From: an uncultured Thermotogae bacterium
Lineage (GTDB): Bacteria > Bipolaricaulota > Bipolaricaulia > UBA7950 > UBA9294
DNA: 45,015 nt
Direction of reading: 5' to 3'
Assembly: GCA_964568045.1 (NCBI GenBank)
Contig: CAZMOL010000003.1
Location: 1-45,015, forward strand
Positions 1 to 41,468 of the stretch are shown one piece after another. Each line of letters begins with the position of its first letter. Positions within the stretch are counted from its first letter, which is position 1. The notes below the pieces were generated by a model, which saw only the letters and a list, made by a program, of their open reading frames with translations, was not told where the DNA came from and made no database searches. The translations under genes were made by a program, and so were the position numbers.

Positions 1-65
1 ACCGAAGCTCCCCGCCCAAAGCCCAAACTGGCCGCCGTCAATCTTGACCACAAACACTGGAGCTG

Positions 66-11197: not shown

Positions 11198-11244
11198 ACC
11201 GTATCAGCTGTTATGAGAGATGCAAACTGTCAAAAGGAGGAGCT

Positions 11245-11511: not shown

Positions 11512-11538
11512 TACGCTTGCTCCATAGTGGCGCCCCCC

Positions 11539-11567
11539 TTGACAAGTCGAAACTTTCTCACTATGAT
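11539..11567 (+). promoter_or_regulatory. Sigma70 promoter of the aromatic supraoperon
   Basis: TTGACA-17 bp-TATGAT; predicted transcription start ~11574. Confidence 0.75.
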
Positions 11568-11576
11568 GAAGACAAG

Positions 11577-11678
11577 ATGATAGGAGCAATAGGGAGTTCC
11601 ACGACTAAGAGAGCAAGAAACGTTTCCCTGAGTTCCTATTGGTATTTCTTTGGTGCTGGCTTTCCTGTCGCTACCTAG
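11577..11678 (+). CDS. Putative attenuator leader peptide, 33 aa, MIGAIGSSTTKRARNVSLSSYWYFFGAGFPVAT
   Basis: Short ORF immediately after the promoter with consecutive Tyr-Trp-Tyr-Phe-Phe codons (11637-11651), followed by attenuator hairpins. Confidence 0.8.
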   Translation: MIGAIGSSTTKRARNVSLSSYWYFFGAGFPVAT

Positions 11679-11721
11679 TCACTAGCTGGGTAACAAGAAC
11701 CGGAAAGCCAGGTGATGACTA
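11656..11721 (+). promoter_or_regulatory. Attenuator protector and antiterminator helices
   Basis: ctggctttcc (11656-65) pairs with ggaaagccag (11702-11); alternatively tagtcactagctgg (11676-89) pairs with ccaggtgatgacta (11708-21), 12/14 pairs including G-U, overlapping the terminator left arm. Confidence 0.7.
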
Positions 11722-11748
11722 CAGGCAATGCCTGTGGTCTTTCTTTTT
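11717..11748 (+). terminator. Intrinsic attenuator terminator upstream of aroH
   Basis: gactacaggc-aat-gcctgtggtc stem followed by tttcttttt. Confidence 0.85.
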
Positions 11749-11798
11749 GGGATGTGCAACGCGCTAACCCGAGCACAGCGAGGAGGTTATCAAAGCCG

Positions 11799-12191
11799 AT
11801 GAAACGAAGGACGACGATGCGGTGTTGCGGCATTCGCGGCGCCACTAGAGTGGACGCCAACGATTCGGATGCGATCATCCGCGCAACACGCGAGTTACTG
11901 GAGCGCATTGTCGCAGCGAATGACCTACAGGTTGAAGATGTGGCCAGCGTGCTGTTCACCGCCACACCTGATCTTGACGCAGCCTACCCAGCCCGCGCCG
12001 CACACGAGATGGGATGGGTAAACACCCCTCTTCTGTGTCTACAGGAGATGGTCGTAACAGACAGTCTGCCGCACTGCATCAGGGTGTTGGTCCTCTGGAA
12101 TACGACCCGGTGTTCCGAGCAAATCCAACACGTCTACCTCGGTGATGCCAGTGCGCTGCGTCCCGATCTGGTGAAGGAGGACAAGACATGA
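11799..12191 (+). CDS. aroH: Chorismate mutase, AroH class
   Basis: [40 protein letters not shown]; ATG 11799 after AGGAGGT (alternative 11817). Confidence 0.93.
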
Positions 12192-13066
12192 CCAAAGTAG
12201 CCTTCCAGGGCGTCTCCGGGGCCTACTCGGAGGAAGCCATCTGCCAGTTTTTTGGCTCGCAAGTGGCGCATCTACCCTGCAAGACGTTTGCGGATGCCTT
12301 CCACGCCGTGGAACGCGGCGAGGCCGAATTTGCGATGCTCCCCGTGGAAAACGCGGTCGCCGGCTCCGTGAATCAGTCCTACGAGCTGCTGATGGAGCAC
12401 GATCTGCGCATCTACGCCGAGGTCATCCTGCGGGTGCGACACATGCTGCTTTCCATCCCTGGTTCGGCTCTTTCCGAAGTGAAGCGCGTACGATCACACC
12501 CGCAGGCGTTGGCACAGTGCCAACGCTATCTCGCCAATCGCAGCTTGTCACCGCAGACTGCGATTGACACGGCGGCCAGTGCGCGCGATCTCGCCGCCAA
12601 TCCGGAGGCCGGCACAGCCGTCATCGCCAGTAGGTTAGCCGCCGAGCTGTACGGACTCGAAATCGTCGATGCGGGCATTGAGGACTACCCCTTCAACTAC
12701 ACTCGGTTCTTTGTACTCTCACTGAATGAGCCGACTCGGACACAGCGATCCAAGACGTCGCTTGTCTTCACCACCCCGCATCAGCCGGGCGCACTCTATG
12801 CGTGCATAGGAGAGCTGACCAAGCGGGGGGTCAATCTCACCAAGATCGAATCACGACCGCGTCTCAATCGACCCTGGCAGTACCTGTTCTATCTGGACTT
12901 TGAAGGACACTGTCAGGACCCGGAGTGCGAAGCGGCAATCATGGGCCTGCTTCGCCGCTCCTCGTTTGTCAAGCTGCTGGGATCCTATCCCGCGGCTACA
13001 ACGCCGATCATCGAGGAAGACACGGCTGAATTGGACGACCCCAAGGGTCAGGAGGTGGCCCAGTGA
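12188..13066 (+). CDS. pheA: Prephenate dehydratase with ACT domain
   Basis: [36 protein letters not shown]. Confidence 0.95.
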
Positions 13067-14076
13067 TGATCGTAATGAAGAAGGACGCAACCACTTCCCA
13101 AGTGGCCAACGTCACTGCCAGAATCGAGCAGATGGGTTGTCAAGCTCACATTTCCCAGGGTGAAGAACGGACCATCATCGGCATCATCGGGAGCGGCCGC
13201 CCCCTCGATCACGAGCTGATCGAGCAGTTGGACGGCGTAGAGAAGACGATGCCCATCTTGAAACCGTTCAAGCGTGCCAGCCGGGAATTCCACCCTCAAG
13301 ACACCGTTGTTTCGACCAACGGCGTTACGATCGGCGGCCGTCAGCTGGTGGTCATCGCCGGTCCCTGTGCCGTGGAGAGCCTCGATCAAATGTTGGAAAT
13401 CGCCCACGCGGTGAAAGAACAAGGCGCGCAACTGCTGCGCGGCGGCGCGTTCAAGCCGCGTACGTCTCCGTACAGCTTCCAAGGACTGGGCGAAGAAGGA
13501 TTGCGCATCCTGGGGAAGGTGCGCCAAGACACGGGACTCGGAGTGGTCACCGAGGTCATGGACCCCGAGATGGTGCCGCTTGTCACGACGTACGCCGATG
13601 TTCTCCAGGTCGGTGCACGCAACATGCAGAACTTCGCGCTGTTGCACGCGATCGGCAAGGCCCATCGGCCGGTCCTACTGAAGCGAGGAATGATGTCGAC
13701 GATGGAGGAGTTGCTGATGGCCGCGGAATACATCCTCTCGCACGGAAACGATAGGATCATCCTGTGCGAACGGGGAATCCGAACATTCGAGACCTACACC
13801 CGCAACACGCTCGACATCGCCGCCGTCCCTCTACTCAAGCAACTCAGCCACCTGCCCGTCATCGTGGACCCGAGTCACGGAACCGGAAAGTGGGAACTGG
13901 TGGAACCGGTCTCCCGGGCAGCGATCGCTGCCGGCGCCGATGGATTGATTGTGGAGGTGCACACGCATCCCGAAGCGGCCCTATCCGACGGAGCGCAGTC
14001 CCTCAAGCCAGACCGCTTTGCCACAATGATGCAGAACCTCGGTCGCATCGCGGAGGCGGTGGGAAGGACGCTGTGA
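13063..14076 (+). CDS. aroF: DAHP synthase, type I-beta, with N-terminal regulatory domain
   Basis: [46 protein letters not shown]. Confidence 0.95.
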
Positions 14077-14933
14077 ACCGACTGGCGGACGCACAAATCA
14101 CAATTATTGGCCTTGGACTGATGGGAGGCTCGCTGGCCGGAGCCCTCCGCGGACGTTGCCGCACAGTGATCGGCGTGGCGCGCCGTGCGGAGACGGTTGA
14201 GACAGCACTCGAATGCGGCCTGATCGATCGAGGAACGACCGATGTGTCAAGTGGTGTTCACCAAGCAGACATCGTCGTTCTGGCCACACCGGTACGCGTC
14301 ATCCTGCAGCAATTGGCCGACATTGGGCCGCTGTTGCCCCAAGGAAGCTTGGTGATGGATCTCGGCAGCACCAAGACACAAATCGTCAGCGCGATGGCAC
14401 GCCTGCCCGACCACGTCCAGCCGCTGGGTGGACATCCGATGTGTGGTAGGGAGGTCTCGGGAATCGAGGAGGCAGATCCAGCACTCTACCGGGGCTGTAC
14501 CTTCATCCTCACACCGCTTGAACGCACCTCCGCGGCGGCTCTGGCGCTGGGCTGTACCCTCGCCGAAGCAATCGGCGCGCATCCACTCGTGCTCGAACCG
14601 GGACGGCAGGACTTCCTGGCCGGCACACTCAGCCACCTGCCGTACCTGTTGGCCTGTGCGCTCGTCGGCACGGCCGATGCCACGACCTCCGCCGACCCGG
14701 CGGCGTGGGAGATCGTTGCGAGCGGGTTCCGCGACACGTCGCGGCTTGCAGGCAGTGACGTGTCAATGATGATCGACATCCTCCTGACCAACCGCGAAGA
14801 GATTCTCAAAGCCCTCGCGAACTACCAGGACCAACTGCACGGTTTGGCCCGTCTTGTGAAGACGAGTGACGAAGACAGAATGCGGGCAGTGCTCGGCACG
14901 TTTCGGGACAAACGAAGGGAGATGTTCCCGTGA
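14073..14933 (+). CDS. tyrA: Prephenate/arogenate dehydrogenase (TyrA family)
   Basis: GTG overlaps the aroF stop; [34 protein letters not shown]. Confidence 0.92.
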
Positions 14934-16219
14934 GCCGATTGACCGTGTCCCCCAACGCAGCGTTGCGCGGGTGCGTCACCGTACCCGGCGACAAATCGAT
15001 CTCCCATCGGGCGTTGCTGCTCGGAGCGTTGGCCGAAGGATCCAGCCACATCACCGGCTTTCTCCCCTCCGGTGACTGCCGCGCCACCCTGGGCTGCCTT
15101 CGAGTACTCGGTGTCAGAATTAAAACCCACAACGCGACCACACTGACCGTGCACGGTCGTGGGCCGGGAGGCCTTGAGGCGCCGGCGGCACCGCTTGACT
15201 GCGTCCGTTCGGGGACGACGATGCGGCTGTTGACCGGCGTGTTGGCAGGACAACCGTTCACAAGCACGCTCAGAGGAGACCAGCAGCTGCTCCTCCGGCC
15301 GATGGGCCGTGTCGTCGAGCCGCTGCGTCGTATGGGAGCCAACATCGAGGACACCGCCGGTCACGCTCCCCTTATCGTGAACGGCCGCCCGCTGCACGGC
15401 ACAATCCATGAACTCAGCGTAGCCAGTGCTCAGGTGAAGAGCGCAATCCTGTTGGCCGGGCTGACCGCCGAGGGCTCAACGAGCGTTTGTCAGCCAGGAC
15501 CGGCACGTGATCACACCGAACGGATGCTCGCTGCAATGGGTGCCGACATCCGGATCTCGGGTCTCACGGTGACACTGCACCCGGCTTCGCGCCTTGCTCC
15601 CCTCTCCCTGACGATCCCCGGCGACGTCTCCTCGGCCGCGTTTCTCCTGGTCGCCGCAGCGCTTGTTCCCGACTCGGCGGTCACTGTCACTGGAGTCGGG
15701 ATCAACCCCACTCGGACCGGGTTGCTCGATGTTCTGCGCGCGATGGGAACCGATATATCCGTGAGCAACCAGCACAGCGCGTGCGGGGAAACAGTGGGCG
15801 ACGTCACGACACGTACTTCCGACCTGCGGGGAGTGACGATCGAAGGCGACACGGTGGTGCGGATGATCGACGAGTTTCCGGTCTTGGCCGTGGCGGCCAC
15901 ACAGGCACACGGCACGACCGTGGTCCGTGATGCGGCCGAGCTACGGGTAAAGGAGACCGACCGTATCGAGGCGGTGGTACAGGAATTGGGCGCCCTGGGA
16001 GCGCACATCGAGCCGCGAGAAGATGGGTTTGTGGTGGAAGGCCCCACGCCGCTTCGCGGCGGGAGGGCCCACTCCCATGGGGATCACCGGCTGGCAATGG
16101 CATTGGCCGTTGCCGGATTGGTCGCCGATGGAGACGTGATCATTCACGATGTGGATTGCGTCGAGGATTCCTTCCCCGGCTTTGTGGAGCGGATGCAGGC
16201 GATAGGAGCTAGAGTGTGA
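14930..16219 (+). CDS. aroA: EPSP synthase
   Basis: PGDKSISHRA, SAQVKSA, RDHTERML, IDEFP, ELRVKETDRI, DHRLAM. Confidence 0.97.
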   Translation: MSRLTVSPNAALRGCVTVPGDKSISHRALLLGALAEGSSHITGFLPSGDCRATLGCLRVLGVRIKTHNATTLTVHGRGPGGLEAPAAPLDCVRSGTTMRLLTGVLAGQPFTSTLRGDQQLLLRPMGRVVEPLRRMGANIEDTAGHAPLIVNGRPLHGTIHELSVASAQVKSAILLAGLTAEGSTSVCQPGPARDHTERMLAAMGADIRISGLTVTLHPASRLAPLSLTIPGDVSSAAFLLVAAALVPDSAVTVTGVGINPTRTGLLDVLRAMGTDISVSNQHSACGETVGDVTTRTSDLRGVTIEGDTVVRMIDEFPVLAVAATQAHGTTVVRDAAELRVKETDRIEAVVQELGALGAHIEPREDGFVVEGPTPLRGGRAHSHGDHRLAMALAVAGLVADGDVIIHDVDCVEDSFPGFVERMQAIGARV

Positions 16220-17109
16220 TTGATGGAAAGACACAGCTTGTTGGGTTAATCGGCTGGCCTGTGGCGCACAGCCTGTCCCCGGTGATGCACAACGCCGCGT
16301 TCGACGCCCTTGGACTCAACTGGCGCTACGTTCCTCTACCCGTACCGCCGGACCGGCTTGAAACATCCGTGCGCGGTCTGGCCGCATTGGGCTTCCGGGG
16401 GGTCAACGTCACCGTGCCACATAAGCAGGCCGCAATACCCCTGCTTGATTCCGTGGCTCCCGACGCTTCTTTATTTGGGGCGGTCAATACGCTCGTGATC
16501 GATCGTGCCCAAAGTGGGGAAGTGACGATCAGTGGCTACAACACAGATCACAGAGGCTTTGTCACATCGCTGCGGCAGAGCGGCTTCGACCCTGAAGGGA
16601 AAAAGGCCGTCGTTTTGGGCGCTGGTGGTGGAGGACGCGCGGTGGTCTTCGGCCTGCTTGAGGCAGAGGCTGTGGAGATTGTGGTGCTCGACAGTGACCC
16701 TGAGAAGGCGCAGGCGCTCATCGATGATTTGTGCGGTCAAGAGTCGCGCCGACTGCGCACGAGACCGCTGACGCAAGAGGCGTTGTTCGAATCCACCCAC
16801 GCTGCTGACCTGTTTGTTCACGCGACTCCCGTCGGGATGTGGCCTCACACCGAGGGATGCATCTGGCCCGAGGAGCTGCCTTTCCCTGCCCATCTCATCG
16901 CTTTTGACCTCGTCTATAACCCGTTGCAAACGAACTTCCTGCGGCGTGCCCGGGAGGCAGGAGCGCCTACGATTGACGGACTGGGCATGCTGGTGGCCCA
17001 GGGAGCACTGTCGTTTGAGCTGTGGACAGGAGAAACGGCGCCGATTGAGGTCATGCGCACCGCCGGCGAACGGGCACTTCAAGAAAGATCTCACCAGGAG
17101 CGCCCATGA
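16216..17109 (+). CDS. aroE: Shikimate dehydrogenase
   Basis: G.PVAHSLSP.MHN, NVTVPHK, GAVNT, NTD, GAGG, DLVYNP, GLGMLVAQG. Confidence 0.95.
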   Translation: MIDGKTQLVGLIGWPVAHSLSPVMHNAAFDALGLNWRYVPLPVPPDRLETSVRGLAALGFRGVNVTVPHKQAAIPLLDSVAPDASLFGAVNTLVIDRAQSGEVTISGYNTDHRGFVTSLRQSGFDPEGKKAVVLGAGGGGRAVVFGLLEAEAVEIVVLDSDPEKAQALIDDLCGQESRRLRTRPLTQEALFESTHAADLFVHATPVGMWPHTEGCIWPEELPFPAHLIAFDLVYNPLQTNFLRRAREAGAPTIDGLGMLVAQGALSFELWTGETAPIEVMRTAGERALQERSHQERP

Positions 17110-17183
17110 GATACCGAGTATCGGTCACGTATATCGTAGCATTCGTGGCTTGGCAATCATCCCTGTGGTGGCGTGGCTTCTAG
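17106..17183 (+). CDS. trpL: Putative internal trp leader peptide, 25 aa, MRYRVSVTYIVAFVAWQSSLWWRGF
   Basis: ATG overlaps the aroE TGA (ATGA), CAGGAG RBS 5 bp upstream, Trp at codon 16 and tandem Trp at 21-22 (17166-71), ends 52 bp before trpE. Confidence 0.75.
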   Translation: MRYRVSVTYIVAFVAWQSSLWWRGF

Positions 17184-17235
17184 CTACGTCCTTAGTAGTT
17201 CAGCTGCCACCACCAAATTGCTCAGGAGGTCAACC

Positions 17236-18777
17236 ATGTATTACCCCACAGTGGATGAAATGAAAGAACTGGCCGAGAAAGGGAATCTGATCCCAGTCTA
17301 CAGAGAAATGCCCGCGGATCTGGATACACCTGTCTCGGTGTACCTCAAGCTGCGACAGGAGAGCCCGTCGTTCTTGCTCGAGAGCGTGGAAAAGGGCGAG
17401 CAGCTTGGCCGCTATTCGTTCCTCGGCGTCGAGCCGGCCGGAGTTCTCACTGCCTCTTCCGGGAAGGTCACTTGGAAAGCAGGTGATTCCGTCAGACAGC
17501 TCGATCCGCCCGGCGGTGATCCCCTGTCAGCAATGAAGCAGCTTCTCGCGCAGTACCGACCGGTACCGGTGGAGGGGTTGCCCGGATTCTGCGGAGGGTT
17601 CGTCGGCTACTTGAGCTACGACGCTGTTCGCTTCTTTGAACGGGCGCCGCTTGCTCCCCAATCGGATCTGGATCTTCCCGATGCCGTTTTCATGTTGGCC
17701 GATAGCCTGGTCATATACGATCACGTCAAGCACCGTTCACTGGTAGTGGTCAATGCGCACGTTGACGGCGACGTGGAAGCAGCCTACGAGGAAGCGACGA
17801 GCAAGATCGCGTCGATCATCGCACGGTTGGGGCATGCGCTGCCGACGGCCTCTAAGCGCAGTGATAAGAAGGCGCCCAGTAGCGATACAAAGTGGAGGAC
17901 CAACTGCGATCAAGAACGTTTCGAGGCGGCGGTACTCAGGGCAAAGGAGTACATCGTCGCCGGCGATATCTTCCAGGTGGTTCCCTCACAGCGGCTCACT
18001 CATCGCACGACCGTCGATCCGTTCGCCATCTATCGGAGCCTGCGCATGCTGAACCCTTCTCCCTACATGTTCTATCTCGATCTTCCGGGCCAGTTGCGCG
18101 TGATCGGCTCCTCGCCCGAGATGCTCGTCCGGTTGACGGGCCGGCTGGCGGAGGTGAGACCGATCGCCGGCACTCGGCCACGGGGTGCGACCCACAGCGA
18201 GGATGAGGCGCTGGCCGAGGAACTGCTAGCCGACCCCAAGGAACGTGCCGAGCACGTCATGCTGGTCGACCTGGGGAGAAACGACCTGGGCCGCGTCTGT
18301 CGGTACGGATCGGTGTGTGTCCCTGAGATGATGGTCATCGAGCGCTACTCGCACGTCATGCACATCGTCTCCGGCGTGCAAGGCGAGCTTGATCCCGATG
18401 TTGACGCATTTGACCTCATGCGCGCGGTGTTTCCCGCAGGAACTGTCTCTGGAGCACCGAAGGTGCGAGCGATGGAGATCATCGCCGAATTGGAGGGCGA
18501 ACGGCGAGGGCCGTACGCAGGAGGGGTCGGCTACTTCAGCTACTCGGGAGACATGGATACCTGCATCACCATTCGTACTATCGTGATGCAGGGTGATGCG
18601 GTTCACGTCCAGGCCGGAGCCGGCATCGTCGCCGATTCCGATCCCACGCGCGAATACCACGAAACGCTGCACAAAGCGGAGGCATTGGCCGAGGCGGTAC
18701 GTGTTGCGGAGAGAGACGAGATCGCGTTGGAAGCAGGCACGAAACACAAAGCGCACGCAAAAGGTGGTGCCGCATGA
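17236..18777 (+). CDS. trpE: Anthranilate synthase component I
   Basis: ATG 17236 after AGGAGGT; DTP, FLLES (Trp-feedback motif), NPSPYM, PIAGT, EHVMLVDLGRND, GAPKVRAM. Confidence 0.96.
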   Translation: MYYPTVDEMKELAEKGNLIPVYREMPADLDTPVSVYLKLRQESPSFLLESVEKGEQLGRYSFLGVEPAGVLTASSGKVTWKAGDSVRQLDPPGGDPLSAMKQLLAQYRPVPVEGLPGFCGGFVGYLSYDAVRFFERAPLAPQSDLDLPDAVFMLADSLVIYDHVKHRSLVVVNAHVDGDVEAAYEEATSKIASIIARLGHALPTASKRSDKKAPSSDTKWRTNCDQERFEAAVLRAKEYIVAGDIFQVVPSQRLTHRTTVDPFAIYRSLRMLNPSPYMFYLDLPGQLRVIGSSPEMLVRLTGRLAEVRPIAGTRPRGATHSEDEALAEELLADPKERAEHVMLVDLGRNDLGRVCRYGSVCVPEMMVIERYSHVMHIVSGVQGELDPDVDAFDLMRAVFPAGTVSGAPKVRAMEIIAELEGERRGPYAGGVGYFSYSGDMDTCITIRTIVMQGDAVHVQAGAGIVADSDPTREYHETLHKAEALAEAVRVAERDEIALEAGTKHKAHAKGGAA

Positions 18778-19370
18778 TCGTCGTCATCGACAATTACGAT
18801 TCTTTCACCTACAACTTGGTGCAGTACTTGGGTGAGTTGGGCGCTGAGGTCACGGTCCATCGCAACGACCGGGTAACCATCGATGAATTGGAGACCCTTG
18901 ATCCATCTCACATCGTCATCTCGCCCGGCCCGGGCCGTCCGGAAGACAGCGGTATCTCGCCTGAGGTGATCCGTCACTTCTACAAGGCAGTCCCAATCCT
19001 TGGTGTGTGTTTGGGTCACCAAGCGATCGCGTACGCTTTCGACGGAACCGTCGGCCAGGCACCCACGTTGATGCACGGTAAGACCTCAAAGATCTACCAC
19101 GCCTCGCAGGGGCTCTTCGCGAGTTTCCCCAGTCCGTTCACCGCCACCCGCTATCACTCCCTCATTGTGGAGGAGCCGTTACCAGCGGAGCTTGAAGTGA
19201 CCGCATTCACTACAGCGGGTGAGGTAATGGCGTTGCAGCACCGCCAGCTTCCCGTGTACGGTGTTCAGTTTCATCCTGAATCGATTCTGTCTCCCGACGG
19301 CAAACGACTCTTGAGCCATTTCCTCGCTGCAACCTGCAGTGAACAGAAGGAGTCGGCTTATGGACATTAG
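18774..19370 (+). CDS. trpG: Anthranilate synthase component II (glutamine amidotransferase)
   Basis: IDNYDSFTYNL, SPGPG, GVCLGHQ, RYHSL, QFHPES. Confidence 0.95.
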   Translation: MIVVIDNYDSFTYNLVQYLGELGAEVTVHRNDRVTIDELETLDPSHIVISPGPGRPEDSGISPEVIRHFYKAVPILGVCLGHQAIAYAFDGTVGQAPTLMHGKTSKIYHASQGLFASFPSPFTATRYHSLIVEEPLPAELEVTAFTTAGEVMALQHRQLPVYGVQFHPESILSPDGKRLLSHFLAATCSEQKESAYGH

Positions 19371-20388
19371 AAAAGCACTTGCTCTGCTCATCGAAGGACA
19401 GAATCTGTCTGGGGCCGATGCGGAAGCAGTGATGGAGCAGATCATGACCGGGCAGGCGACCCCCGCTCAAATCGGTGGGCTGTTAACTGCGCTGCGAGCA
19501 AAGAAAGAGACCACAGAAGAGATCACCGGGTTTGCCCGCGCGATGCGACGCAATGCAGTCGCCGTATCGTCACATCGCACCCCGTTGGTCGATGTCTGCG
19601 GCACCGGAGGCGATGGTAGCGGCACGTTCAACATCTCCACTGCTGCCGCTCTTGTCATCGCCGGGGCGGGCCTGGCAGTGGCCAAGCACGGAAATCGTTC
19701 AGTATCCAGCAAGTGCGGAAGTGCGGACGTACTGGAGGCACTGGGAGTTCATTTGACCCTCGCACCGAAGGTCATCGGCGCCTGTATCGATGAGGTAGGA
19801 ATCGGTTTTCTCTACGCGCCGCAGCTCCATCCGGCGATGAAGCACGCCATCGGCCCGCGGCGGGAGATGGGGATACGCACAGTGTTCAACATACTGGGGC
19901 CGCTCACCAATCCGGCCGGAGCGCGCGTGCAGGTGCTCGGGGTATACGACGCCGCACTTACTGAGGTGATGGCACAGGTGCTGCACGCGCTGGGGTGCGA
20001 GGCTGCGTTCGTCGTGCACGGGGGCGGTGGGTTGGACGAGCTGTCAACCATAGGACCGAACAAGATGACCCAGCTGCGTGCCGGAGAGATCCGCACCTTT
20101 ACGTTGGACCCTCAATCCCTTGGATTGCCGCAGGCCACGCTGTCCGATCTGAGGGGAGACGACGCCGGGTCGAACGCCGCCATCATCGGGGACATCCTGA
20201 CCGGTACTCCAGGCCCGAGGAGGGACGTGGTGTTGCTCAATGCCGCCGCCTGTCTGGTTGCAGGCAAGAAAGCAGCCGACCTTGCCGCTGGTTTGACCCT
20301 GGCGGCGGAAAGCATCGACTCGGGAGCGGCAAGAGCCACACTCGACGCTCTGATCGCCTTTTCCAGGAAACGAGGGAGTGCGGCATGA
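19360..20388 (+). CDS. trpD: Anthranilate phosphoribosyltransferase
   Basis: D.CGTGGDG, KHGNR, GSAD.LEALG, RTVFN.LGPL.NP. Confidence 0.96.
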   Translation: MDIRKALALLIEGQNLSGADAEAVMEQIMTGQATPAQIGGLLTALRAKKETTEEITGFARAMRRNAVAVSSHRTPLVDVCGTGGDGSGTFNISTAAALVIAGAGLAVAKHGNRSVSSKCGSADVLEALGVHLTLAPKVIGACIDEVGIGFLYAPQLHPAMKHAIGPRREMGIRTVFNILGPLTNPAGARVQVLGVYDAALTEVMAQVLHALGCEAAFVVHGGGGLDELSTIGPNKMTQLRAGEIRTFTLDPQSLGLPQATLSDLRGDDAGSNAAIIGDILTGTPGPRRDVVLLNAAACLVAGKKAADLAAGLTLAAESIDSGAARATLDALIAFSRKRGSAA

Positions 20389-21182
20389 TCCTCGATGAAA
20401 TCCTGGACCACAAGCAAGCAGAAGTGGCGCTGGCGCGTCAGCAGGTCTCACTGCAGGTACTGAAAGGCCGGACAGCGGCTCAGACCCCCGCGCTCGACTT
20501 CGCCGCTGCCGCGCGGGGGAATGGGGTCTGCCTGATCGCAGAAGTGAAGAAGGCGTCTCCCTCCAAAGGGGTGATGTGCGCTGAGCTGGACCCCGTGGCT
20601 ATCGCCCTCACCTACGCGTCGCACGGAGCGGCTGCCATCTCCGTGCTCACCGACCTGCGTTTCTTCCAAGGCAACCTTCAAAGCCTAACCGCAATTAAGG
20701 AAGCGCTTCAGAAGGAGGGCCGGGTGGTCCCACTATTGCGCAAGGACTTCATCATCGACCCGTATCAGGTCTACGAAAGCCGTGCCGCCGGCGCTGATGC
20801 CCTGCTTCTCATCGCAGCCGCACTCGCCGACGAAGTGCTTGCCGAGCTGCTGGCGTTGACACACAATCTGGGAATGACTGCTCTGGTGGAGGTTCACGAC
20901 GAACAGGAGGTCGGACGAGTGCTCCCACTTCGACCACGCGTTGTGGGGATCAACAACCGCGATCTGTGTGACTTCAGTGTCGACCTAGCCCGCTTTGAAC
21001 GACTCCGCTCCCAACTTCCAGACGATGTCACCGCCGTGGCGGAAAGCGGCATTCAGACTGCCGCCGACGTTCGCCGGTTGGCGAGGATGGGCGCTGATGC
21101 CGTGCTGGTCGGTGAGGCGCTGGTAACGGCACCTGACGTTGGAACAAAGGTTCGGGAACTCGTAGCGGGCGGAGTGTCATGA
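20385..21182 (+). CDS. trpC: Indole-3-glycerol phosphate synthase
   Basis: ATG overlaps the trpD stop; [35 protein letters not shown]. Confidence 0.96.
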
Positions 21183-23026
21183 TCCGGGTGAAGATCTGTG
21201 GAATCACGAACCCAGAGGATGCCCTGGCCGCTGCGGGAGCAGGAGCAGACCTGCTTGGCTTCGTGTTCCATCCACCCAGTCCGCGCTGCGTGGAACCCGT
21301 CCGCGCCGGAGAGGTCATCGATGTCGTCCGTCACGCCTTTCCCACTGTGGGCTTCGTCGGGGTGTTTGTAGATGAGACATTGGGAAACGTGCAGCAGACC
21401 GTATCCCATTGTGGGCTTGACTACGTGCAGCTCCACGGCAGTGAACCCCCGGAGATGATAGACGCCCTGATGGATCGTGGCACAAAGGTCATCAAGGCTT
21501 TCCGCGTCCGTGATAGGGCCTCTCTGTCCGGGATCGAGCGCTACCGTGCGACGGTCTATCTCCTCGATGCCTTTGTTCCCGAGCAGATGGGTGGAACCGG
21601 ACGCAGTTTCGACTGGACGCTGGCTGCAGAAGCGAAGGAATACGGGCCGATCCTGTTGGCCGGCGGGTTGACTCCAGAAAACGTGCACCGGGCGATCTGC
21701 GCCGTCCACCCTTGGGGGGTGGATGTCTCAACCGGCATCGAGACAACACCGGGGCGCAAGGATCACGCTCGACTGCGGCATTTCATCGCAGCAGCAGAGG
21801 GCCTCGCTCCTGCGAAGAAGCAGACGCCACAACGAGGCCCCGATGCCCGCGGCTATTTCGGAGCCTTCGGCGGAAAGTTCGTCCCGGAAACGCTGATGCC
21901 CGCCCTCGAGGAACTGGAGCGCGCGTACCACGAGGCCCGTTCGAATTCAGCGTTCCAAAACGAACTGGAGAGCCTGCTGCGGCAGTACGCGGGTAGGCCG
22001 ACGCCACTGTATCTTGCCAAGAGACTTACCGCCCACTGCGGAGGGGCACGAATGTATCTCAAGCGGGAGGACCTCGCCCACACCGGCGCCCACAAGATCA
22101 ACAACACTTTGGGCCAGGCACTCTTGGCCCAACGGATGGGAAAACACCGATTGGTCGCGGAAACCGGTGCCGGCCAACACGGGGTCGCTACTGCCACGGC
22201 TGCGGCCCTACTGGACATGGAGTGCATCGTATATATGGGTACCCAAGACATGGCCCGTCAGGCTCCCAATGTCGAACGCATGCGGCTGTTGGGCGCCGAC
22301 GTGCGTCGGGTGAACACGGGCAGCCGCACCCTCAAAGACGCGATCAACGAGGCCATCCGCGACTGGGTAACCAACGTGCGATCGACCTACTACCTGCTGG
22401 GCTCCGTCCTGGGACCGCACCCGTATCCCATGATCGTGCGCGACTTCCAGACCGTCATCGGCGAGGAGGTCCGCGAACAGATCCTGGCTGCAGAAGGGCG
22501 CTTGCCCGATTGCTTGGTTGCGTGCGTCGGCGGCGGATCAAACGCCATTGGGATCTTCTATCCCTTCTTGGGCGATGCGGTGGCAATGGTGGGTGTGGAG
22601 GCCGGTGGCCGCGGAATCGAAACCGGGGAGCATGCGGCGCGGTTCTCCGACCCCGACACAGGGCGCATCGGCGTGCTACACGGAACCCGTTCCTACGTGC
22701 TGCAAGACAACGACGGACAAATCCTGACCACCCATTCTGTCTCCGCTGGGCTTGACTATCCGGCAGTCGGTCCTGAGCTCAGCCACCTGAGAGACTCGGC
22801 CCGGGTGGAGTACACCACCGCCTCCGACGAAGAGGCACTCGATGCGTTTGACCTTCTCTGCAGGATGGAAGGGATCATCCCAGCCCTGGAATCGGCGCAC
22901 GCCCTGGCCGAGGCCGTAAAACGGGCCTCCAAGATGTCGTCTCGTCACATCATCATCGTGAACCTGTCGGGAAGAGGGGACAAGGATCTCGACACCGTGA
23001 CCGAGATAAGGAAGGCGGCTCAATGA
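21179..23026 (+). CDS. trpF-trpB: Fused phosphoribosylanthranilate isomerase / tryptophan synthase beta chain
   Basis: N-terminal VKICGIT...LAGGL.PEN...GVDVSTGIE; then [37 protein letters not shown], all in one 615-aa frame. Confidence 0.93.
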
Positions 23027-23880
23027 CTGCTACAAGCGGCATTCAACGAATCGCTGCTGCGTTTGAGCGGGCGCGAACTGAAGAACGTGCGGCTCTGATT
23101 CCGTATGTGGCCCTGGGCCATCCTACACCGGAGATGTCGCTCAAGCTGGCCGCGGCGGCTATCGAAGGTGGAGCTGACTTGCTGGAACTCGGCGTGCCCT
23201 TCTCTGACCCCCTGGCCGATGGCCCTGTCATCCAGCGCGCTACACAAACGGCCCTGCAACAGGGCGTCACGGTACTCCGTTGTTTAGAGTTGGCACAGAC
23301 GCTACGGCAGCGAAAGCCCGAGATTCCCCTCATCTTCATGGGGTACTACAATCCCATTCTTACCTACGGCGAAGACGCCTTCTGCCGCGCCTGCGATGTG
23401 GCGGGAGTGGACGGCCTGATCGTACCGGATCTGCCACCGGAAGAAGGAGAAGAGCTGGAAGCCGCGTGTCAGGTTCATGGCCTGGCGCTTGTCTACCTGT
23501 TGTCCCCAACCAGCACTCCGCAGCGCGTTCACCTCGTTACGCAGCACTCTCAGGGGTTCGTTTACCTCGTATCGCTGGCGGGGGTCACCGGACCCCGAGA
23601 TCGTTTACCCGCCGATCTACCCGCGTTTGTGAAGCAAGTGCGGATGGCAACGGACAAACCCCTGGCAGTTGGCTTTGGGATCGCCTCTGCCCAACAAGCC
23701 GGGCGGGTCGCCGCCCTAGCAGACGGCGTCATCGTTGGCAGTGCGTTGGTTCGCCTGGCTGAAGAGGTAAGTGCTGAATCCAAGGTAAGATCCTTCGTGG
23801 CCGGCTTGCGCCAGGCAATGACCACCCCAAAGGTCAGCCTCGGTTCCAGCCGTGATGAGCAATCGAGGAGGAAGACCTGA
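23023..23880 (+). CDS. trpA: Tryptophan synthase alpha chain
   Basis: [41 protein letters not shown]. Confidence 0.97.
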
Positions 23881-25016
23881 TGCTTCGTTTTCTGACCGCC
23901 GGCGAATCGCACGGTCCCTGCCTAATCGCCATCGTGGAAGGGATGCCTGCCGGCCTGATGGTGGATGTGGAAGCGATCCATCACGATCTGGCCCGCCGCC
24001 AGCGCGGCTACGGCCGCGGAGAAAGGATGCAAATCGAGCAGGATCGAGTGGAACTGCTGGGTGGGGTAATCGCCGGCAAGACAACCGGTGCACCAATGGC
24101 ACTGCGCATCGAGAACCGCGACTGGGCCAATTGGCGTGATCGTTGGGATAGCGGTGATCTGCCCAAGCTGACTGTGCCCCGTCCCGGCCACGCTGACTAT
24201 GCCGGCGCGGTCAAGTACGGTCTGGATGATGCCCGCTCGATTCTCGAACGGGCCAGCGCGCGGGAGACCGCGGCCAGGGTGGCAGTCGGTTCACTGGCCA
24301 AGCAGCTGCACGCCGCGTTTGACATCGCCGTCGGCAGCTACGTCGCACAGATCGGTGACGTCCTCGCCACGATCCCCAACCTTCTGCCAGAGGAATTGTG
24401 GAAGCTCGCCGAGGCAAATGATGTGCGTTGTCCCGACGAGGAGGCTGCCGTCCAAATGCGGTCGGCGATTGATGCGGCACGCGAAGCCGGTGACTCACTC
24501 GGCGGCGTGTTTGTTGTCATCGCGACTGGAGTACCGGTCGGACTGGGCAGTCACGTGCACTGGGATCGCCGACTCGACGGCAGACTCGCCTCAGCGATGA
24601 TGTCCATCCCCGCGATTAAGGGCGTGGAGATCGGTCCGGCTTTCGCAAACGCCCGTCGTCCGGGTACACAGGTGCACGACGAACTCCTTCCAAACGGCAA
24701 GGGCGGTGTGACACACGGTACAAATCGAGCCGGTGGCGTCGAAGGCGGGATGAGCAACGGCGCACCGATTGTCATTCGAGCAGCGATGAAGCCGATCCCG
24801 ACCACGCTCACACCACTTCGCTCGGTCGATCTCGCCACCAATGAGCCGGCACAGACCCAGTACCAGCGCTCCGACGTCTGTGCCGTGCCCGCTGCATCAG
24901 TGGTCGGTGAGGCGATGGTCGCCTGGGTGCTGGCCGATGCCCTGGTGGAGAAGCTGGGCGGCGACAGCCTGGCTGAGATGAAGGCCCATTGGAACAGCTG
25001 GAGACAGCATGGGTGA
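23880..25016 (+). CDS. aroC: Chorismate synthase
   Basis: TAGESHG, RPGHAD, ERASARETAARV, KPIPT, RSDVCAVP. Confidence 0.97.
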   Translation: MLRFLTAGESHGPCLIAIVEGMPAGLMVDVEAIHHDLARRQRGYGRGERMQIEQDRVELLGGVIAGKTTGAPMALRIENRDWANWRDRWDSGDLPKLTVPRPGHADYAGAVKYGLDDARSILERASARETAARVAVGSLAKQLHAAFDIAVGSYVAQIGDVLATIPNLLPEELWKLAEANDVRCPDEEAAVQMRSAIDAAREAGDSLGGVFVVIATGVPVGLGSHVHWDRRLDGRLASAMMSIPAIKGVEIGPAFANARRPGTQVHDELLPNGKGGVTHGTNRAGGVEGGMSNGAPIVIRAAMKPIPTTLTPLRSVDLATNEPAQTQYQRSDVCAVPAASVVGEAMVAWVLADALVEKLGGDSLAEMKAHWNSWRQHG

Positions 25017-26607
25017 CAGCGGAAACGTCATCATCACCGGGTTCATGGGCACAGGCAAAACGGCGGTGGGCCGGAAGGTTGCGCGGCTGCTGGGCCGTCC
25101 GTTCGTGGACATGGACGCAGAGATCAGGAAGCGAGCGGGCAAATCGATCCACGACATCTTCGCCGAAGACGGAGAGTCCACGTTCCGAGAAATGGAAACC
25201 GCCCTGTGCGAGGAATTGTGCGCACAACGGGAATTGGTGATCGCCACCGGCGGCGGTACGCTGGTCGATCCCACCAATCGGGAGCGGATGATGTTAAGCG
25301 GAACTGTCGTCTGTCTGAGCTGCAACGTCGATGAGATTGCTCGCCGCGTCAGCAGAAACCCACATCGGCCGTTACTCGACGTGGCCGACCCCCCCGCCGA
25401 GATCGAGCGATTGTTGGCGAAAAGACACGCGGCCTACACTGCCATTCCTTGGCAGATCGAGGCCAGTGGCCTCTCCATAGAGGACGTGGCCGCACGCGTG
25501 ATCGAAATGGCCGGCGTCATCACCCTTCCGGTTCACCACCCCGATGGCGAGTATCCCGTTCACATCGGCAACGACCTGCTGTCGCACATCGGCGGAGCGC
25601 TGCACGCCAGCGGTGTAGTTGAAGGCACTCGCGTCGCCGTGGTGTCGAATCCAGTTGTCGGTCCGCTCTGCAGTGTGAAGGTCGAGGAAGCCTTGCGATC
25701 GGCAGAATTTCAACCCTTCGCCTGCTCCATCCCCGATGGTGAGCAGCACAAAACGCTCACCGCCGTCGCCGGTCTCTACGATCGGTTCCTCAAACGGGGA
25801 CTTGACCGCACCGGTGTTGTGTTGGCACTCGGGGGTGGGGTAACCGGCGATGTCGTAGGCTTTGCCGCAGCAACCTACATGCGCGGTGTCCGTCTCGTTC
25901 AAGTGCCGACCACGCTTCTGGCAATGGTTGACGCCAGTGTGGGCGGCAAGACCGGTGTCGACCTTCCTCAAGGAAAGAACTTGATCGGCACATTCAAGCA
26001 ACCAGTCTTGGTGGTCATCGATCCGTCCGTACTGGCAACGCTTCCCGACGAAGAGATGCGCTGTGGCCTGGCCGAGGTCATCAAACACGGGGTGATCGGT
26101 GATCCGGACCTCTTTGCGGAGCTGGAGGCTGGTGAAGCTGAGCTTCCTTCGTGGTGGAGTCAACAAGGGGCAAACCGCATTGCCCAAGCACTGCGAGTCA
26201 AGATCGGCGTGGTCGAGGAGGACCCATTCGAGAAAGGCCGCCGTGCCGTGCTCAACCTCGGTCACACCGTGGGCCACGGACTGGAGCGGTTGAGTGACTT
26301 CAACATGCGTCACGGCGAAGCGGTGAGCATCGGAATGGCAGTTGTAGCACGGATTGCCGCCGAGCTGGATCGGGCCGAACAGTCGCTCGTCGAGAGAATC
26401 GAGGCGATACTGACGGCCTGGGAGCTGCCGGTCCGATGCCCTCCGGTTGATGCAGAAGCCATCTGGTCAGCAATGACCCACGACAAGAAGAAGCGCGGCA
26501 ATGCGCTTCGTTGGGTACTACCTCGTACGATCGGCGAAGTGGAGATAGTCGAAGACGTACCCCCTTCCCTGGTAAAATCCGTACTACGCAGCCTAGGCGC
26601 GAGGTGA
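25009..26607 (+). CDS. aroK-aroB: Fused shikimate kinase / 3-dehydroquinate synthase
   Basis: [21 protein letters not shown]; then [40 protein letters not shown]. Confidence 0.95.
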
Positions 26608-26612
26608 AACAA

Positions 26613-27077
26613 ATGACTGACAACAGTCTCAAGGTATTGGTGCTGCACGGCCCCAATCTCAATCTGCTTGGCCAAAGGGAGCCGCAGCTCTACGGCCACA
26701 TGACGCTTGGAGAGATCAACGCGGCGCTGCGTAACGCCGCTGTCGAACACAAGGCGGAGCTTCGCATTGTGCAATCCAACCACGAGGGCGCGCTGATCGA
26801 TGCCCTGCATGAAGCGATGGCTTGGGCCGACGGTGTCCTCATCAATCCCGGCGCCTACACTCATACGAGCATCGCCCTGCGGGACGCCATCGCCGCTGTG
26901 GGACTCCCCGCCGTGGAGATCCACCTATCGAACATCCACGCCCGCGAGCCATTCCGCCGCCGCTCGCTCATCGCGCCGGTCTGTGTTGGACAGATTATTG
27001 GATTTGGCTGGCACAGTTACCTGCTCGGACTCACTGCACTGCTCGATCATTTGACGGACAAGGAGGAATCAACGTGA
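26613..27077 (+). CDS. aroQ: Type II 3-dehydroquinate dehydratase
   Basis: [41 protein letters not shown]. Confidence 0.96.
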
Positions 27078-28279
27078 AATGCGCCAAACGGCTGTCCAAC
27101 GTCCCGTCCTATCCCTTCGCCCGTTGGGCAACGCACGTCAAAGCGGCCCAAGACAAGGGATTGGAGGTCATTCGCTTGGACATGGGAAACCCCGACATGC
27201 CGCCGTCCGAGGAGGTCATCGCGGCAATGTGTCAATCTGCGCATCGCCCCGATCACCACGGCTATCCCGGCTTCCGCGGAATCCCTGCGCTGCGCGAGGC
27301 AGTCGCGGACTACTACCAGCGACGGTTCGGCGTTGTGCTCGATCCGGAGACCCAGGTTGTGCCGCTTCTCGGTTCCAAAGAGGGCATCGTCAATATGGCC
27401 CTGGCGTGTCTTGATCCCGGCGACGTGGCACTGGTACCCGATCCCGGCTACGCGCCCTATACCATGGGCACAATCCTGTCCGGCGCCACGGTCAACACCT
27501 TCCTCCTGCAACAAGAGCGGGGGTTCCTGCCGGATCTGGATTCCATCCCAACCGACGTCGCCGATCGAGCGGTGTTGATGTGGCTGAACTATCCGAACAA
27601 CCCCACCGGCGCCACGGCGAATCTTGATTTCTTTTCCCAGGCGGTCGAGTTTGCCCGTAGGCATAGGCTGCTGCTGTGCCACGACGCGCCGTACAGCGAC
27701 GTCACTTACAGCGGCTACGTCGCGTCGAGCCTGTTGCAGGTTCCCGGCGCTACTGAGGTCGCGGTGGAACTCAATTCCCTGTCCAAGACCTTCAACATGG
27801 CCGGCTGGCGTGTGGGAATGGCCGTTGGCAATGCGGAGGCACTGGCGTTGCTCGCCCGTGTCAAATCAAACGTCGATTCGGGCATCTTCCGCCCGCTGCA
27901 GGAGGCGGCGGTGTGTGCCCTGTCCGCAACACCGGAGTCGATCTCGGCACGCAACGCAATCTACCGCGAGCGGATGGAGCTTGTGGTAGAAGGCCTAAAG
28001 GCGATCGGCATCGATGCACCACTTCCACGAGCGACGCTCTACCTTTGGGCGAAAATTCCATCGAGCTGGACCTCGGAAGCCTTCGCGCTCTCTTTGCTCA
28101 ACGAAACCGGCATCTCCGTTGCGCCCGGCTCGTTCTTCGGCCCCGCCGGCGAAGGCTACATCCGGGTCTCCGTCACCGCGTCGACGGAGAAGGTTCAAGA
28201 AGCGAGCAAGCGACTTCAAAGCTGCGCGAAGGAGTGGATCGCGAAGGGCTCGAAACAGGGGACGACAGCAAACAGTTGA
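27074..28279 (+). CDS. PLP-dependent class I/II aminotransferase, probably the terminal aromatic aminotransferase
   Basis: GTG after AGGAGG overlaps the aroQ stop; [36 protein letters not shown]. Confidence 0.85.
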
Positions 28280-28375: not shown

Positions 28376-29380
28376 ATGAGCGACTTCATTGACCGGGTAT
28401 TGGATCCTCAGCCGCAGCGCAAGAACGCTGATTGGCAGCGGCTGCTAAGAAGGATGCAGGGCGGCATCGGGTGGATCGTCATCGGGGTGATTGTCGCGAT
28501 CTATCTGTTGACGGGGATTTACACGATCGGCCCATCCGAGGTGGGGCTGGTCAAACGGTTCGGCCGTTTCGTCGCGACCGTGGAGCCGGGGTTGCACTAC
28601 CACCTGCCCTCGCCGATCGAAAGCGTGGTTGCGGTAAACGTACTGGAGATACGAAAAGAAGAGATTGGATTCAGAACGGTCTCGCCTCCCCCCAGTCCGC
28701 GGTATCAAACCGTGGAGACGGAAGCCCTCATGCTGACCGGTGATGGGAACATCGCGCACGTGGAGATGGTCGTACAGTATCGGGTCAAGGACGCAGAGCA
28801 GTTCGCATTCAACATAATACATCCCAAGACGATTGTCAAGCAGGCGGCGGAGGCCGTACTGCGCGAACAGGTGGCGACACGAACGCTCGATGAAACGCTG
28901 ACCGAGGAACGCGACGTAATCGGTGTCGACACGATCGTCGCACTGCAGACGTTGCTCGATACCTACGGGGCAGGAATTGTGGTAGGCAACGTGCAGCTTC
29001 AGGATGTGAAGCCCCCGCGGGAGGTTATCTCGGCCTTTGACGACGTCAACAGCGCCCGCCAAGACAAGGAGAAACTGATCAACAAAGCGGAGGAATACGC
29101 GATGGATATCCTCCCCCGCGCCCGCGGGCAGGCACAGGAGATCGCCAATCAGGCCGAGGCCTACAAGCAAGAACGGATCAAGCGGGCGGAGGGAGACGTT
29201 GCCCGTTTCCTGGAGGTACTGACGAAGTACGAACTGGGCAAAGACGTCACCAGAACGCGCATCTACATCGAGACGATGGAAGAGATCCTCCCGGGGATGG
29301 ACAAGATCATCCTGTCCCAAGATGCAAGCGGGGTTCTGAAACTGCTTGACCTGAGCAAGACCTTTTTGGGGGGTGAGTGA
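28376..29380 (+). CDS. hflK: FtsH modulator HflK
   Basis: TM segment plus SPFH domain; MLTGDGNI, V..AFDDV, ARG.A, AEAYK...I..AEG, R.YIETME. Confidence 0.93.
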   Translation: MSDFIDRVLDPQPQRKNADWQRLLRRMQGGIGWIVIGVIVAIYLLTGIYTIGPSEVGLVKRFGRFVATVEPGLHYHLPSPIESVVAVNVLEIRKEEIGFRTVSPPPSPRYQTVETEALMLTGDGNIAHVEMVVQYRVKDAEQFAFNIIHPKTIVKQAAEAVLREQVATRTLDETLTEERDVIGVDTIVALQTLLDTYGAGIVVGNVQLQDVKPPREVISAFDDVNSARQDKEKLINKAEEYAMDILPRARGQAQEIANQAEAYKQERIKRAEGDVARFLEVLTKYELGKDVTRTRIYIETMEEILPGMDKIILSQDASGVLKLLDLSKTFLGGE

Positions 29381-30243: not shown

Positions 30244-30320
30244 GCAAACCGCGGGATCCCCTGGTGAGCCCGCTCCAAAAAAGCGGCCGCGGAACGTATA
30301 ATCCCACACGCAACACAGAA

Positions 30321-30355
30321 TAAAGAACCCCCGCAGCTTGCTGCGGGGTTCTTTA
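30321..30355. terminator. Probable bidirectional intrinsic terminator
   Basis: taaagaacccccgcagc-tt-gctgcggggttcttta hairpin with A- and T-rich flanks after hflC. Confidence 0.7.
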
Positions 30356-38932: not shown

Positions 38933-38957
38933 CCCAACGCTTTAGAAGGAGGTGCTT

Positions 38958-41428: not shown

Positions 41429-41468
41429 CGGATACTAAAGAAGACTAAAAGGGATAAGGAGGAGGAAG

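Follow-up and report, generated by a model that had tools for sequence, protein, structure and literature searches.

Two-tier leader control, in a predicted model, of a complete aromatic amino acid supraoperon from an uncultured Thermotogae bacterium

Introduction

How can a pathway that branches towards three amino acids be adjusted to each of them when all of its genes appear to follow a single promoter? The question is raised by a 45,015-nt stretch of DNA from an uncultured Thermotogae bacterium (GenBank assembly GCA_964568045.1, contig CAZMOL010000003.1, positions 1 to 45,015 of the forward strand; here called the window), in which 16 genes encode the whole route from erythrose-4-phosphate and phosphoenolpyruvate to Phe, Tyr and Trp under one predicted promoter. 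The genome is a metagenome assembly of 1.5 Mb and 82% completeness, and its DNA is present in marine-sediment and subsurface runs; none of the 21 runs listed for the locus (11200-18200) is recorded as RNA.

The answer that we favor, at a probability of about 0.62, is that the cluster is one 16-gene unit transcribed from 11539, with a leader attenuator at its entrance (tier 1) and a Trp-codon open reading frame (ORF) at the trp branch (tier 2). A branched pathway would then be controlled by ribosomes instead of repressors in a small-genome, uncultured sediment bacterium, through a three-product sensor at the entrance and, at the branch, a Trp sensor. The DNA and its comparison with relatives establish the genes present, the promoter, both short ORFs, the terminator, the family to which this terminator belongs and the match between sensor codons and downstream genes.

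Results

A complete set of aromatic genes behind one detectable promoter

An NCBIfam search of 20 translated frames identified, with strong scores, an uninterrupted aromatic block of 16 ORFs on the + strand (11799/11817-28279) in the order aroH-pheA-aroF-tyrA-aroA-aroE-trpEGDC(FB)A-aroC-aroKB-aroQ-aminotransferase. The 16 ORFs hold 18 pathway activities plus the aminotransferase and cover all seven shikimate steps, chorismate mutase, both prephenate enzymes and every trp step. All were named by NCBIfam models and lie on the + strand, as does the promoter.

11539..11567, + strand: promoter, -35 TTGACA, 17-nt spacer, -10 TATGAT, 11 of 12 consensus matches
11817-12191 (alternative start 11799), + strand: aroH, monofunctional chorismate mutase (TIGR01796, 132 bits; Pfam CM_1)
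12188-13066, + strand: pheA, prephenate dehydratase
13063-14076, + strand: aroF, DAHP synthase (519 bits)
14073-14933, + strand: tyrA, prephenate/arogenate dehydrogenase
14930-16219, + strand: aroA
16216-17109, + strand: aroE
17236-18777, + strand: trpE
18774-19370, + strand: trpG
19339 or later-20388, + strand: trpD
20385-21182, + strand: trpC
21179-23026, + strand: trpF::trpB fusion (NF010376, 745 bits)
23023-23880, + strand: trpA
23880-25016, + strand: aroC
25009-26607, + strand: aroK::aroB fusion
26604/26613-27077, + strand: aroQ, type II dehydroquinase
27074-28279, + strand: class-I aminotransferase

Overlaps of 4 nt of the ATGA/GTGA type open pheA, aroF, tyrA, aroA, aroE, trpG, trpC, trpFB, trpA and the aminotransferase gene; aroC overlaps its predecessor by 1 nt and aroKB by 8 nt, and aroQ either overlaps or starts 5 nt on. 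The sole real gap in the cluster is the 126 nt between aroE and trpE, 78 nt of which are filled by a short ORF. The family names and these junctions bear out a preliminary description of the stretch, made from its letters alone, as 16 near-contiguous enzyme ORFs with the full shikimate, Phe, Tyr and trp set. Both leader ORFs of that description are also present, but the position at which it began the cluster, 11539, is the -35 box of the promoter and not a gene start. The N-terminus of AroH agrees with those of its relatives if translation starts at 11817, which is most likely the start (possibly 11799), rather than the GTG at 11712. The aminotransferase is the genome's best match to LL-diaminopimelate aminotransferases, below the curated cut-offs (499 against 507 bits, 488 against 593 bits); only gene context suggests a role in Phe and Tyr synthesis.

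When scored with a matrix built from the attenuator promoters of 32 relatives, the site at 11539 gives 25.6, the highest value in the window, and the top + strand score within the cluster, 9.2, is what 50 shuffles reach as their mean maximum. A consensus scan for sigma-70-like sites on the + strand returned 11049 (before a tRNA gene), 11170 (before an ORF of the PC4 family) and 11539, and these three positions are the only + strand matches to TTGACN-16..18-TANNNT in the whole 45-kb window. Three scans, all restricted to sigma-70-like sites, thus found no internal + strand promoter in the cluster; they agree with the claim of one promoter, and the hidden internal promoter that had been offered as an alternative was not detected, the best internal score being at chance level. 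No terminator-like site was found on the + strand between 11739 and 29841. The first strong + strand terminator past the cluster lies behind the next two genes:

28376..30348, + strand: hflK and hflC (NCBIfam), with the terminator at 30329-30348

The 96-nt gap between the aminotransferase gene and hflK holds no promoter-like or terminator-like site, and hflK-hflC are possibly co-transcribed with the aromatic cluster; hflK was not detected behind the aminotransferase gene in the nearest public contig (L026).

A Tyr-Trp-Phe leader and an intrinsic terminator at the entrance

Between the promoter and aroH lie four elements that together resemble an attenuator.

11577..11678, + strand: leader ORF of 33 codons, MIGAIGSSTTKRARNVSLSSYWYFFGAGFPVAT, its ATG 9 nt past the -10 box
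11637..11651, + strand: sensor codons TAT TGG TAT TTC TTT (Tyr Trp Tyr Phe Phe), as read from the sequence
about 11656..11711, + strand: long hairpin P1, its 5' arm beginning 5 nt past the last Phe codon
11717..11750, + strand: intrinsic terminator, 10-bp stem GACUACAGGC/GCCUGUGGUC, 3-nt loop, then UUUCUUUUU

Because there is no room for a ribosome-binding site between promoter and ATG, the transcript from which the entrance leader is translated is most likely leaderless. The ORF contains a hairpin of its own (P0), its stop codon (11676-11678) sits in the apical part of P1, and a 4-nt linker joins P1 to the terminator. The entrance region folds at -84.6 kcal/mol (z -4.19), with 0 of 200 shuffles equally stable, and the YWYFF run is identical in the same-genus orthologue. 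In keeping with the earlier statement that no T-box was seen, none was found in the 45-kb window or in the 82%-complete genome. No Rfam leader family (Trp_leader, His_leader, Thr_leader, Leu_leader and others) reached its gathering score in the window; around both leaders, Rfam at E≤10 returned only chance-level matches to unrelated families (E 3.1-4.7). TRAP (TrpBP, PF02081) had no match in the genome, in a search that matched a control Bacillus subtilis genome.

A second short ORF (11728-11802, + strand, 24 codons, MPVVFLF...) starts with an ATG in the terminator loop, and its TGA overlaps the upstream candidate aroH start at 11799. A start codon (ATG, GTG or TTG) occupies the loop/3'-arm junction in 12 of 16 terminators; the corresponding frame in relatives ends 4 nt past the heuristic gene start in 7 of 33 cases and enters the gene in frame in 6 of 33. 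This pattern may be due to chance, as gene starts had been guessed.

A terminator module whose sensor codons follow the downstream gene

The leader DNA has matches in 13 of 41 related genomes, in which the terminator is the best-conserved part and stands before differing genes. A covariance model of the terminator (R1), which scores 65.1 bits at the terminator in the window, detects the module in 62 of the 74 genomes of the bacterium's family at E≤0.01, with about 150 copies in total, three of them in the genome studied here. Across the class, a sample of 151 genomes searched at E≤1e-4 has it in 22 of 43 genomes of family f1, 1 of 4 of f2, 1 of 19 of f7 and 0 of 84 of other families; the module is almost confined to the family. 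Most of the instances examined (33 of 39) share a TTGAC-type -35 box, a 17-nt spacer, a TAnnnT box, a start codon 6-10 nt on and an ORF of 26-36 codons. The leaders were classified by the Pfam family of the first downstream gene, 4 ORF picks having no Pfam family.

Chorismate mutase downstream, n=10: leader runs YWYFF, FFWYYF, YYWF, FYYYF, FFFYF, SYYF, YTYY
Second DAHP synthase, then trpE, downstream, n=3: leader run WWW
Homoserine dehydrogenase downstream, n=4: leader runs TTTT, YTT, IYTT
Cys/Met pyridoxal phosphate (PLP) enzyme downstream, n=2: leader run MMM
PF04392 binding proteins downstream, n=10: leader runs of the WYWF type
LivJ-like binding proteins downstream, n=3: leader runs of mixed hydrophobic and aromatic residues
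Family-5 binding protein downstream, n=1: leader run NWW

Tyr-only leaders precede aroH in G003 and G053. In the genome studied here the module is restricted to its three attenuators, two of which lie outside the window:

C1:49363-49409, - strand: second module copy, leader ending SMMMS, before a Cys/Met PLP enzyme
C51:6398-6445, + strand: third module copy, leader LMYWILF, before a LivJ-like binding protein

The sensor codon mix also follows the metabolism of the organism. The aroH leaders of eight family genomes contain a Trp codon, and trpE was found in seven of these; the aroH leaders of five others lack it, and none of these five yielded trpE. One genus includes both states: G069 combines FYWYYYF with a nested trp block, and G004 has FYYYF and no trp block. 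The contrast is seen in at least two genera, although the related genomes are not independent of one another. The Trp codon and the match between codons and genes provide the strongest evidence that the entrance ORF is a sensor, and they agree with the preliminary description of a general Tyr-Trp-Phe attenuator at this position.

The geometry of the module is conserved along with its promoter. The arms of P1 complement each other better than shuffles do in 32 of 33 members (mean z -3.42), and the last sensor codon lies 5-7 nt from P1 in the leaders read. The distance from stop codon to terminator is 35-41 nt in 27 of the 28 long-tail members and 47 nt in the 28th, and 52-55 nt in the other 5 of 33. 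The terminator sequence is almost invariant over operons and genera, with one stem pair changed from A-U to G-C in 7 of 27 sequences; to our knowledge, ordinary terminators are not conserved to such a degree. That attenuators for several amino acids share one terminator across a lineage indicates that sensor and read-out behave as separable modules. The homoserine dehydrogenase gene in the window (33813-34871, + strand) has no leader or module upstream, and relatives carry a TTTT attenuator before hom.

A conserved Trp-codon ORF directly before trpE

The short ORF in the gap between aroE and trpE constitutes the proposed second tier.

17106..17183, + strand: internal leader ORF of 25 codons, MRYRVSVTYIVAFVAWQSSLWWRGF, its ATG overlapping the aroE TGA; Trp codons at 17151-17153 and 17166-17171
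17165..17213, + strand: hairpin with the Trp-Trp codons as its 5' arm, GUGGUGGC pairing with GCCACCAC, not followed by a U-run

The ORF ends 52 nt before trpE, with a strong AGGAGG site in between. trpE was found in 10 of the 74 family genomes, and an orthologous ORF lies directly before it in 6 of these 10, representing 5 genera. It follows aroE in the window, G013, G069 and G008 and a second aroF in G054 and G055. All six orthologues retain the core [F]-[V/L]-[A/S]-W-[Q/R]-x-x-[L/V]-W-W-[R/Q] (FVxWRxxLWWR-type), third-position changes keep the core residues, and the start codon overlaps or abuts the upstream stop codon in each. In every orthologue the hairpin starts at the Trp-Trp codons without a following U-run, and a + strand scan found no terminator before trpE. 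A conserved Trp-codon ORF before trpE, without a terminator, is thus in place, as had been proposed for a Trp-only internal leader. That it regulates at all, and at which level, we infer.

In G054 the internal ORF is present together with an intact WWW attenuator before the same operon. Because the two coexist, we regard the internal ORF as a second, separate element and not simply as what is left of that attenuator. The internal leader and the WWW leaders of G020 and G048 have in common a 10-nt string, UGGUGGCGUG (17166-17175 in the window), and an L-W-W-R motif, which hints at a possible common descent of the internal leader and the WWW attenuator leaders.

Arrest peptides of the TnaC type sense a free amino acid and have a nascent-peptide motif that is conserved and always equally far from the stop codon. 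The peptide core of the internal ORF is kept in 6 of 6 orthologues, but its distance to the stop varies, with 1 to 3 residues following WW(R/Q). As the conservation is seen at the peptide level, a nascent-peptide effect may contribute.

Three other leads at this site were set aside or were of limited use. Pairing of CUGUGG with CCCACAG of early trpE occurs only in the window and G013, on a conserved Pro-Thr motif, and was rejected as coincidental; Leu-Trp-Trp codons account for an 8-nt identity between the internal leader and the 3' arm of the terminator. Searching with a strict nucleotide pattern of the internal leader gives many chance matches, with 6 of 30 fetched loci, the window included, having it before trpE.

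Observations that weigh against two-tier control

Several results count against the two-tier reading, most of them from the search for an RNA switch. In the family, the 5' arm of the terminator pairs with upstream RNA no better than do shuffles (mean z +0.26; 2 of 33 below -1.64), and the 3' arm of P1 does not pair convincingly with the 3' arm or tail of the terminator (mean z +0.15 to -0.59), its pairing with the U-tail being weak (mean z -0.59, 6 of 33). The 5' end gave z -0.37 against the terminator, and the sensor codons paired with the downstream ribosome-binding site in 0 of 33. In a co-transcriptional test, in which a ribosome occupied the last sensor codon and the RNA reached no further than the terminator loop, the median gain from 5'-arm pairing was -2.8 kcal/mol (-4.2 in the window) against -15.4 for the terminator; the trp attenuator of E. 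coli K-12, the positive control, gave -9.3 against -11.8 kcal/mol in the same test. A constrained minimum-energy fold kept the terminator in 15 of 15 leaders and also in the E. coli control, and is therefore non-discriminating. Among the family members, these predictions yielded no convincing alternative antiterminator pairing.

Three further models were examined by eye and rejected. A reversed model, in which a free P1 3' arm strengthens the terminator, and a model in which the stop-codon context CCUAG pairs in part with the terminator 5' arm were both inconsistent between members; a Shine-Dalgarno-like linker before the terminator was present in 9 of 16 only and likewise inconsistent. Nothing upstream pairs convincingly with the near-invariant terminator. 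Ribosome stalling very probably lowers termination, by a route that we infer; a kinetic or factor-dependent switch may perform the read-out.

At the second tier, the 146-nt region folds like ordinary RNA (z -0.83; 35 of 200 shuffles fold as well), and no consensus RNA structure emerged over the internal-ORF orthologues (-2.13 kcal/mol). Simulated stalling opens the trpE ribosome-binding region in three of the six orthologues, leaves it about unchanged in two and closes it in the window. Four of the ten trpE-bearing family genomes do without the internal ORF. With regard to transcription, the promoter scans are blind to promoters of other sigma factors, and a single transcription unit that starts at the leader ATG and can end at 11740-11750 is a prediction from sequence.

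Layouts in relatives

A synteny comparison shows that the nested layout recurs in relatives: it is complete in G069, of another genus of the same family, with a gap of about 600 nt ahead of aroQ and one of about 1300 nt ahead of the aminotransferase gene, and partial in G013, G008 and L026. In a split layout, found in G020, G014, G048, G054 and G055, aroH-pheA-aroF-tyrA... is divergent from a WWW attenuator followed by the second aroF and trpEGDCFBA. In G004, of the same genus as G069, aroE is directly followed by aroC. Because they are present in G069 and absent from G004, the trp block and its short ORF behave as a cassette at the aroE/aroC junction, which suggests that Trp prototrophy has been lost or gained repeatedly as a unit. 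An en-bloc horizontal transfer, which had been raised for the cluster, is not needed, because relatives of other genera in the same family share the nested layout; the base composition is unremarkable.

Outside the family sample, the nearest public contig is L026 (TrpC identity 78%), labelled as a Thermotogae metagenome-assembled genome (MAG); the next TrpC contigs are at 59% and below and mostly labelled Chloroflexota or Dehalococcoidia. Among 80 public trpC loci (20 kb each), 8 have trp beside at least three aro/phe/tyr genes, including Moorella thermoacetica, several MAGs and a Bacillus-type locus; only L026 has the gene order of the window, and no other has all 16 genes. An unrelated MAG (L052, JBBIIG010000001.1) has trpEGDCFBA-aroF-tyrA-aroA-aroE-aroC-aroK-aroQ behind a YWYYWYWY short ORF, a mixed aromatic leader.

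Neighbourhood of the cluster

Upstream of the cluster are prfA, a tRNA gene and an 88-codon ORF of the PC4 family (single-stranded DNA-binding, coactivator-like; 11245-11511, + strand), which has its own promoter (11170) and ribosome-binding site, stands directly before the leader promoter and is kept at the same place in a same-genus relative (78% identity). A type I-C-like CRISPR-Cas locus (36758-44997, + strand) encodes Cas3, Cas5d, Csd1, Cas7, Cas4 and Cas1; the array behind the cas genes has at least 8 repeats (Rfam CRISPR-DR9) and reaches the window end, and the G+C content of this region (0.51-0.54) is below that of the rest of the window.

Discussion

A model for two-tier control

In the model that we prefer, transcription would start at the leader ATG or no more than a few bases from it, and a ribosome on Tyr-Trp-Tyr-Phe-Phe would stall when any one of the three charged tRNAs is scarce. 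A stall at the last sensor codons would cover the foot of P1 and result in less termination at the hairpin and U-run 40 nt on. With all three amino acids plentiful, the ribosome would reach the stop codon inside P1 and leave, P1 and the terminator would form, and transcription would end before aroH. The entrance element would be one member of a lineage-specific modular family with a shared promoter type, leaderless start, P1 geometry and terminator, and with exchangeable sensor codons. Further on, ribosomes finishing aroE would restart on the 25-codon ORF with its three Trp codons, which would tune the nested trp block to Trp and spare the downstream aroC-aroKB-aroQ-aminotransferase genes. Of the two tiers, the first has good support as a leader-peptide attenuator, unusual in being modular and apparently leaderless; for the second, translational tuning of trpE is the most plausible, though still putative, reading of the internal ORF. 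The preliminary description had placed the action of this ORF on trpE translation by arguing that a terminator there would cut off aroC, aroKB and aroQ; the argument stands, with predicted opening on stalling in three of six orthologues and no conserved structure found.

Alternative readings

The rival that survives best, although we consider it unlikely, is that the internal ORF is a non-regulating remnant of a WWW-type attenuator and that the trp enzymes are under tier 1 and feedback inhibition only. A remnant would account for the UGGUGGCGUG string and L-W-W-R motif shared with WWW leaders of relatives, for the missing terminator, conserved fold and consistent effect on the trpE ribosome-binding region, and for the four trpE-bearing genomes that manage without the ORF. 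It fits poorly with an 11-codon core kept in six genomes of five genera through synonymous third-position changes, with three Trp codons at fixed spacing, with stop-codon coupling kept in two contexts (after aroE and after the second aroF) and with coexistence alongside the intact WWW attenuator of G054.

A bolder proposal, which we regard as speculative and would not expect to hold, goes beyond two-tier control. Modular leaderless sensor ORFs (aromatic, Trp, Thr, Met, hydrophobic) might all feed one sequence-specific terminator, read through an undescribed factor, a ribosome contact or a kinetic route without an RNA antiterminator; the FVxWRxxLWWR-type peptide might be a Trp-responsive nascent peptide that is coupled to aroE and tunes the trp block only.

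The internal leader could instead control transcription: with Trp plentiful, Rho or the hairpin without a U-run would end some of the transcripts ahead of trpE or early within it, a ribosome stalled on the Trp codons would prevent this, and the downstream aro genes would live on readthrough. Partial Rho-dependent polarity at the aroE-trpE spacer, the cluster's only untranslated stretch, is kept as a possibility because a rho gene is present in the genome (622 bits, above cut-off); the B. subtilis supraoperon is moreover outlined in PMC1173090 as bearing an internal Trp-dependent terminator. Such control is nevertheless improbable here, given that only 52 nt with a strong AGGAGG separate the ORF from trpE, that there is no terminator-like site at aroE-trpE, and that aroC, aroKB and aroQ, all required for Phe and Tyr, would drop together with the trp genes, with no rescuing internal promoter found.

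We rate as equally improbable that the cluster consists of several units, with weak promoters or promoters of other sigma factors before trpE and/or aroC and with leaders controlling separate units. The restriction of the scans to sigma-70-like sites leaves room for it, the five split-layout genomes have the same genes in separate operons, and G069 has the two gaps before aroQ and the aminotransferase gene. However, the near-universal start-stop overlaps, down to 1 nt at trpA/aroC, confine any promoter to coding sequence, and the consensus and matrix scans of the + strand gave nothing above chance inside the cluster. Finally, that the entrance element is a promoter-proximal terminator with a chance short ORF that senses nothing is hardly credible: it would explain why an antiterminator was not found, but the sensor codons change with downstream gene function in every class examined, the Trp codon follows trpE, and the ORF keeps its start, its length and its distance from the hairpins.

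Comparison with known systems

Nested trp genes with their own Trp control are textbook knowledge from B. subtilis, in which, as outlined in PMC1173090, the trp operon is inserted in a six-gene aro operon with TRAP-mediated attenuation and internal Trp control, and an internal Trp-dependent terminator is tolerated. The same outline describes supraoperons in Desulfovibrio vulgaris, Nostoc/Anabaena and others. As far as this account goes, and with 8 of 80 trpC loci supraoperonic, the arrangement has precedents. Both loci nest trp among common-pathway and Phe/Tyr genes behind an outer promoter, have a Trp control point (putative here) before trpE and place genes required for Phe and Tyr downstream of it. 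Unlike that of B. subtilis, the block described here is complete, its gene order differs and no TRAP gene was found in the genome; inside it stands a translated ORF with Trp codons and no terminator, and no internal promoter is detectable.

The entrance leader shares with the enterobacterial attenuators (trp, pheA, his, thr, leu, ilv) an ORF with cognate codons, a hairpin, an intrinsic terminator and, presumably, the logic of charged-tRNA sensing. It differs from them in combining three amino acids in one leader, in its leaderless start, in the lack of an Rfam match, in a terminator that is near-identical across amino acids, and in that no 2:3-type antiterminator of comparable strength was found. 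A literature search on leader-peptide attenuators in Chloroflexi or Dehalococcoid tryptophan operons found nothing on the subject.

Leaderless sensory short ORFs are also known from mycobacteria, in which leaderless polycysteine ORFs serve as first cistrons and several loci are coordinated, as a "ribulon", by pausing on one kind of codon, in the summary given by 10.1101/834739. The module described here resembles these in its leaderless sensory ORFs at several loci. It departs from that summary in that an intrinsic terminator follows, that pairing of sensor codons with the ribosome-binding site is seen in 0 of 33 members and that one module serves several amino acids. Neither tier displays the RNA switch that textbook models require, which makes the locus a good place to ask how termination or translation is coupled to leaderless leader peptides. 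Taken together, aromatic supraoperons and leader-peptide attenuators are both already known, and this cluster combines them in a variant form.

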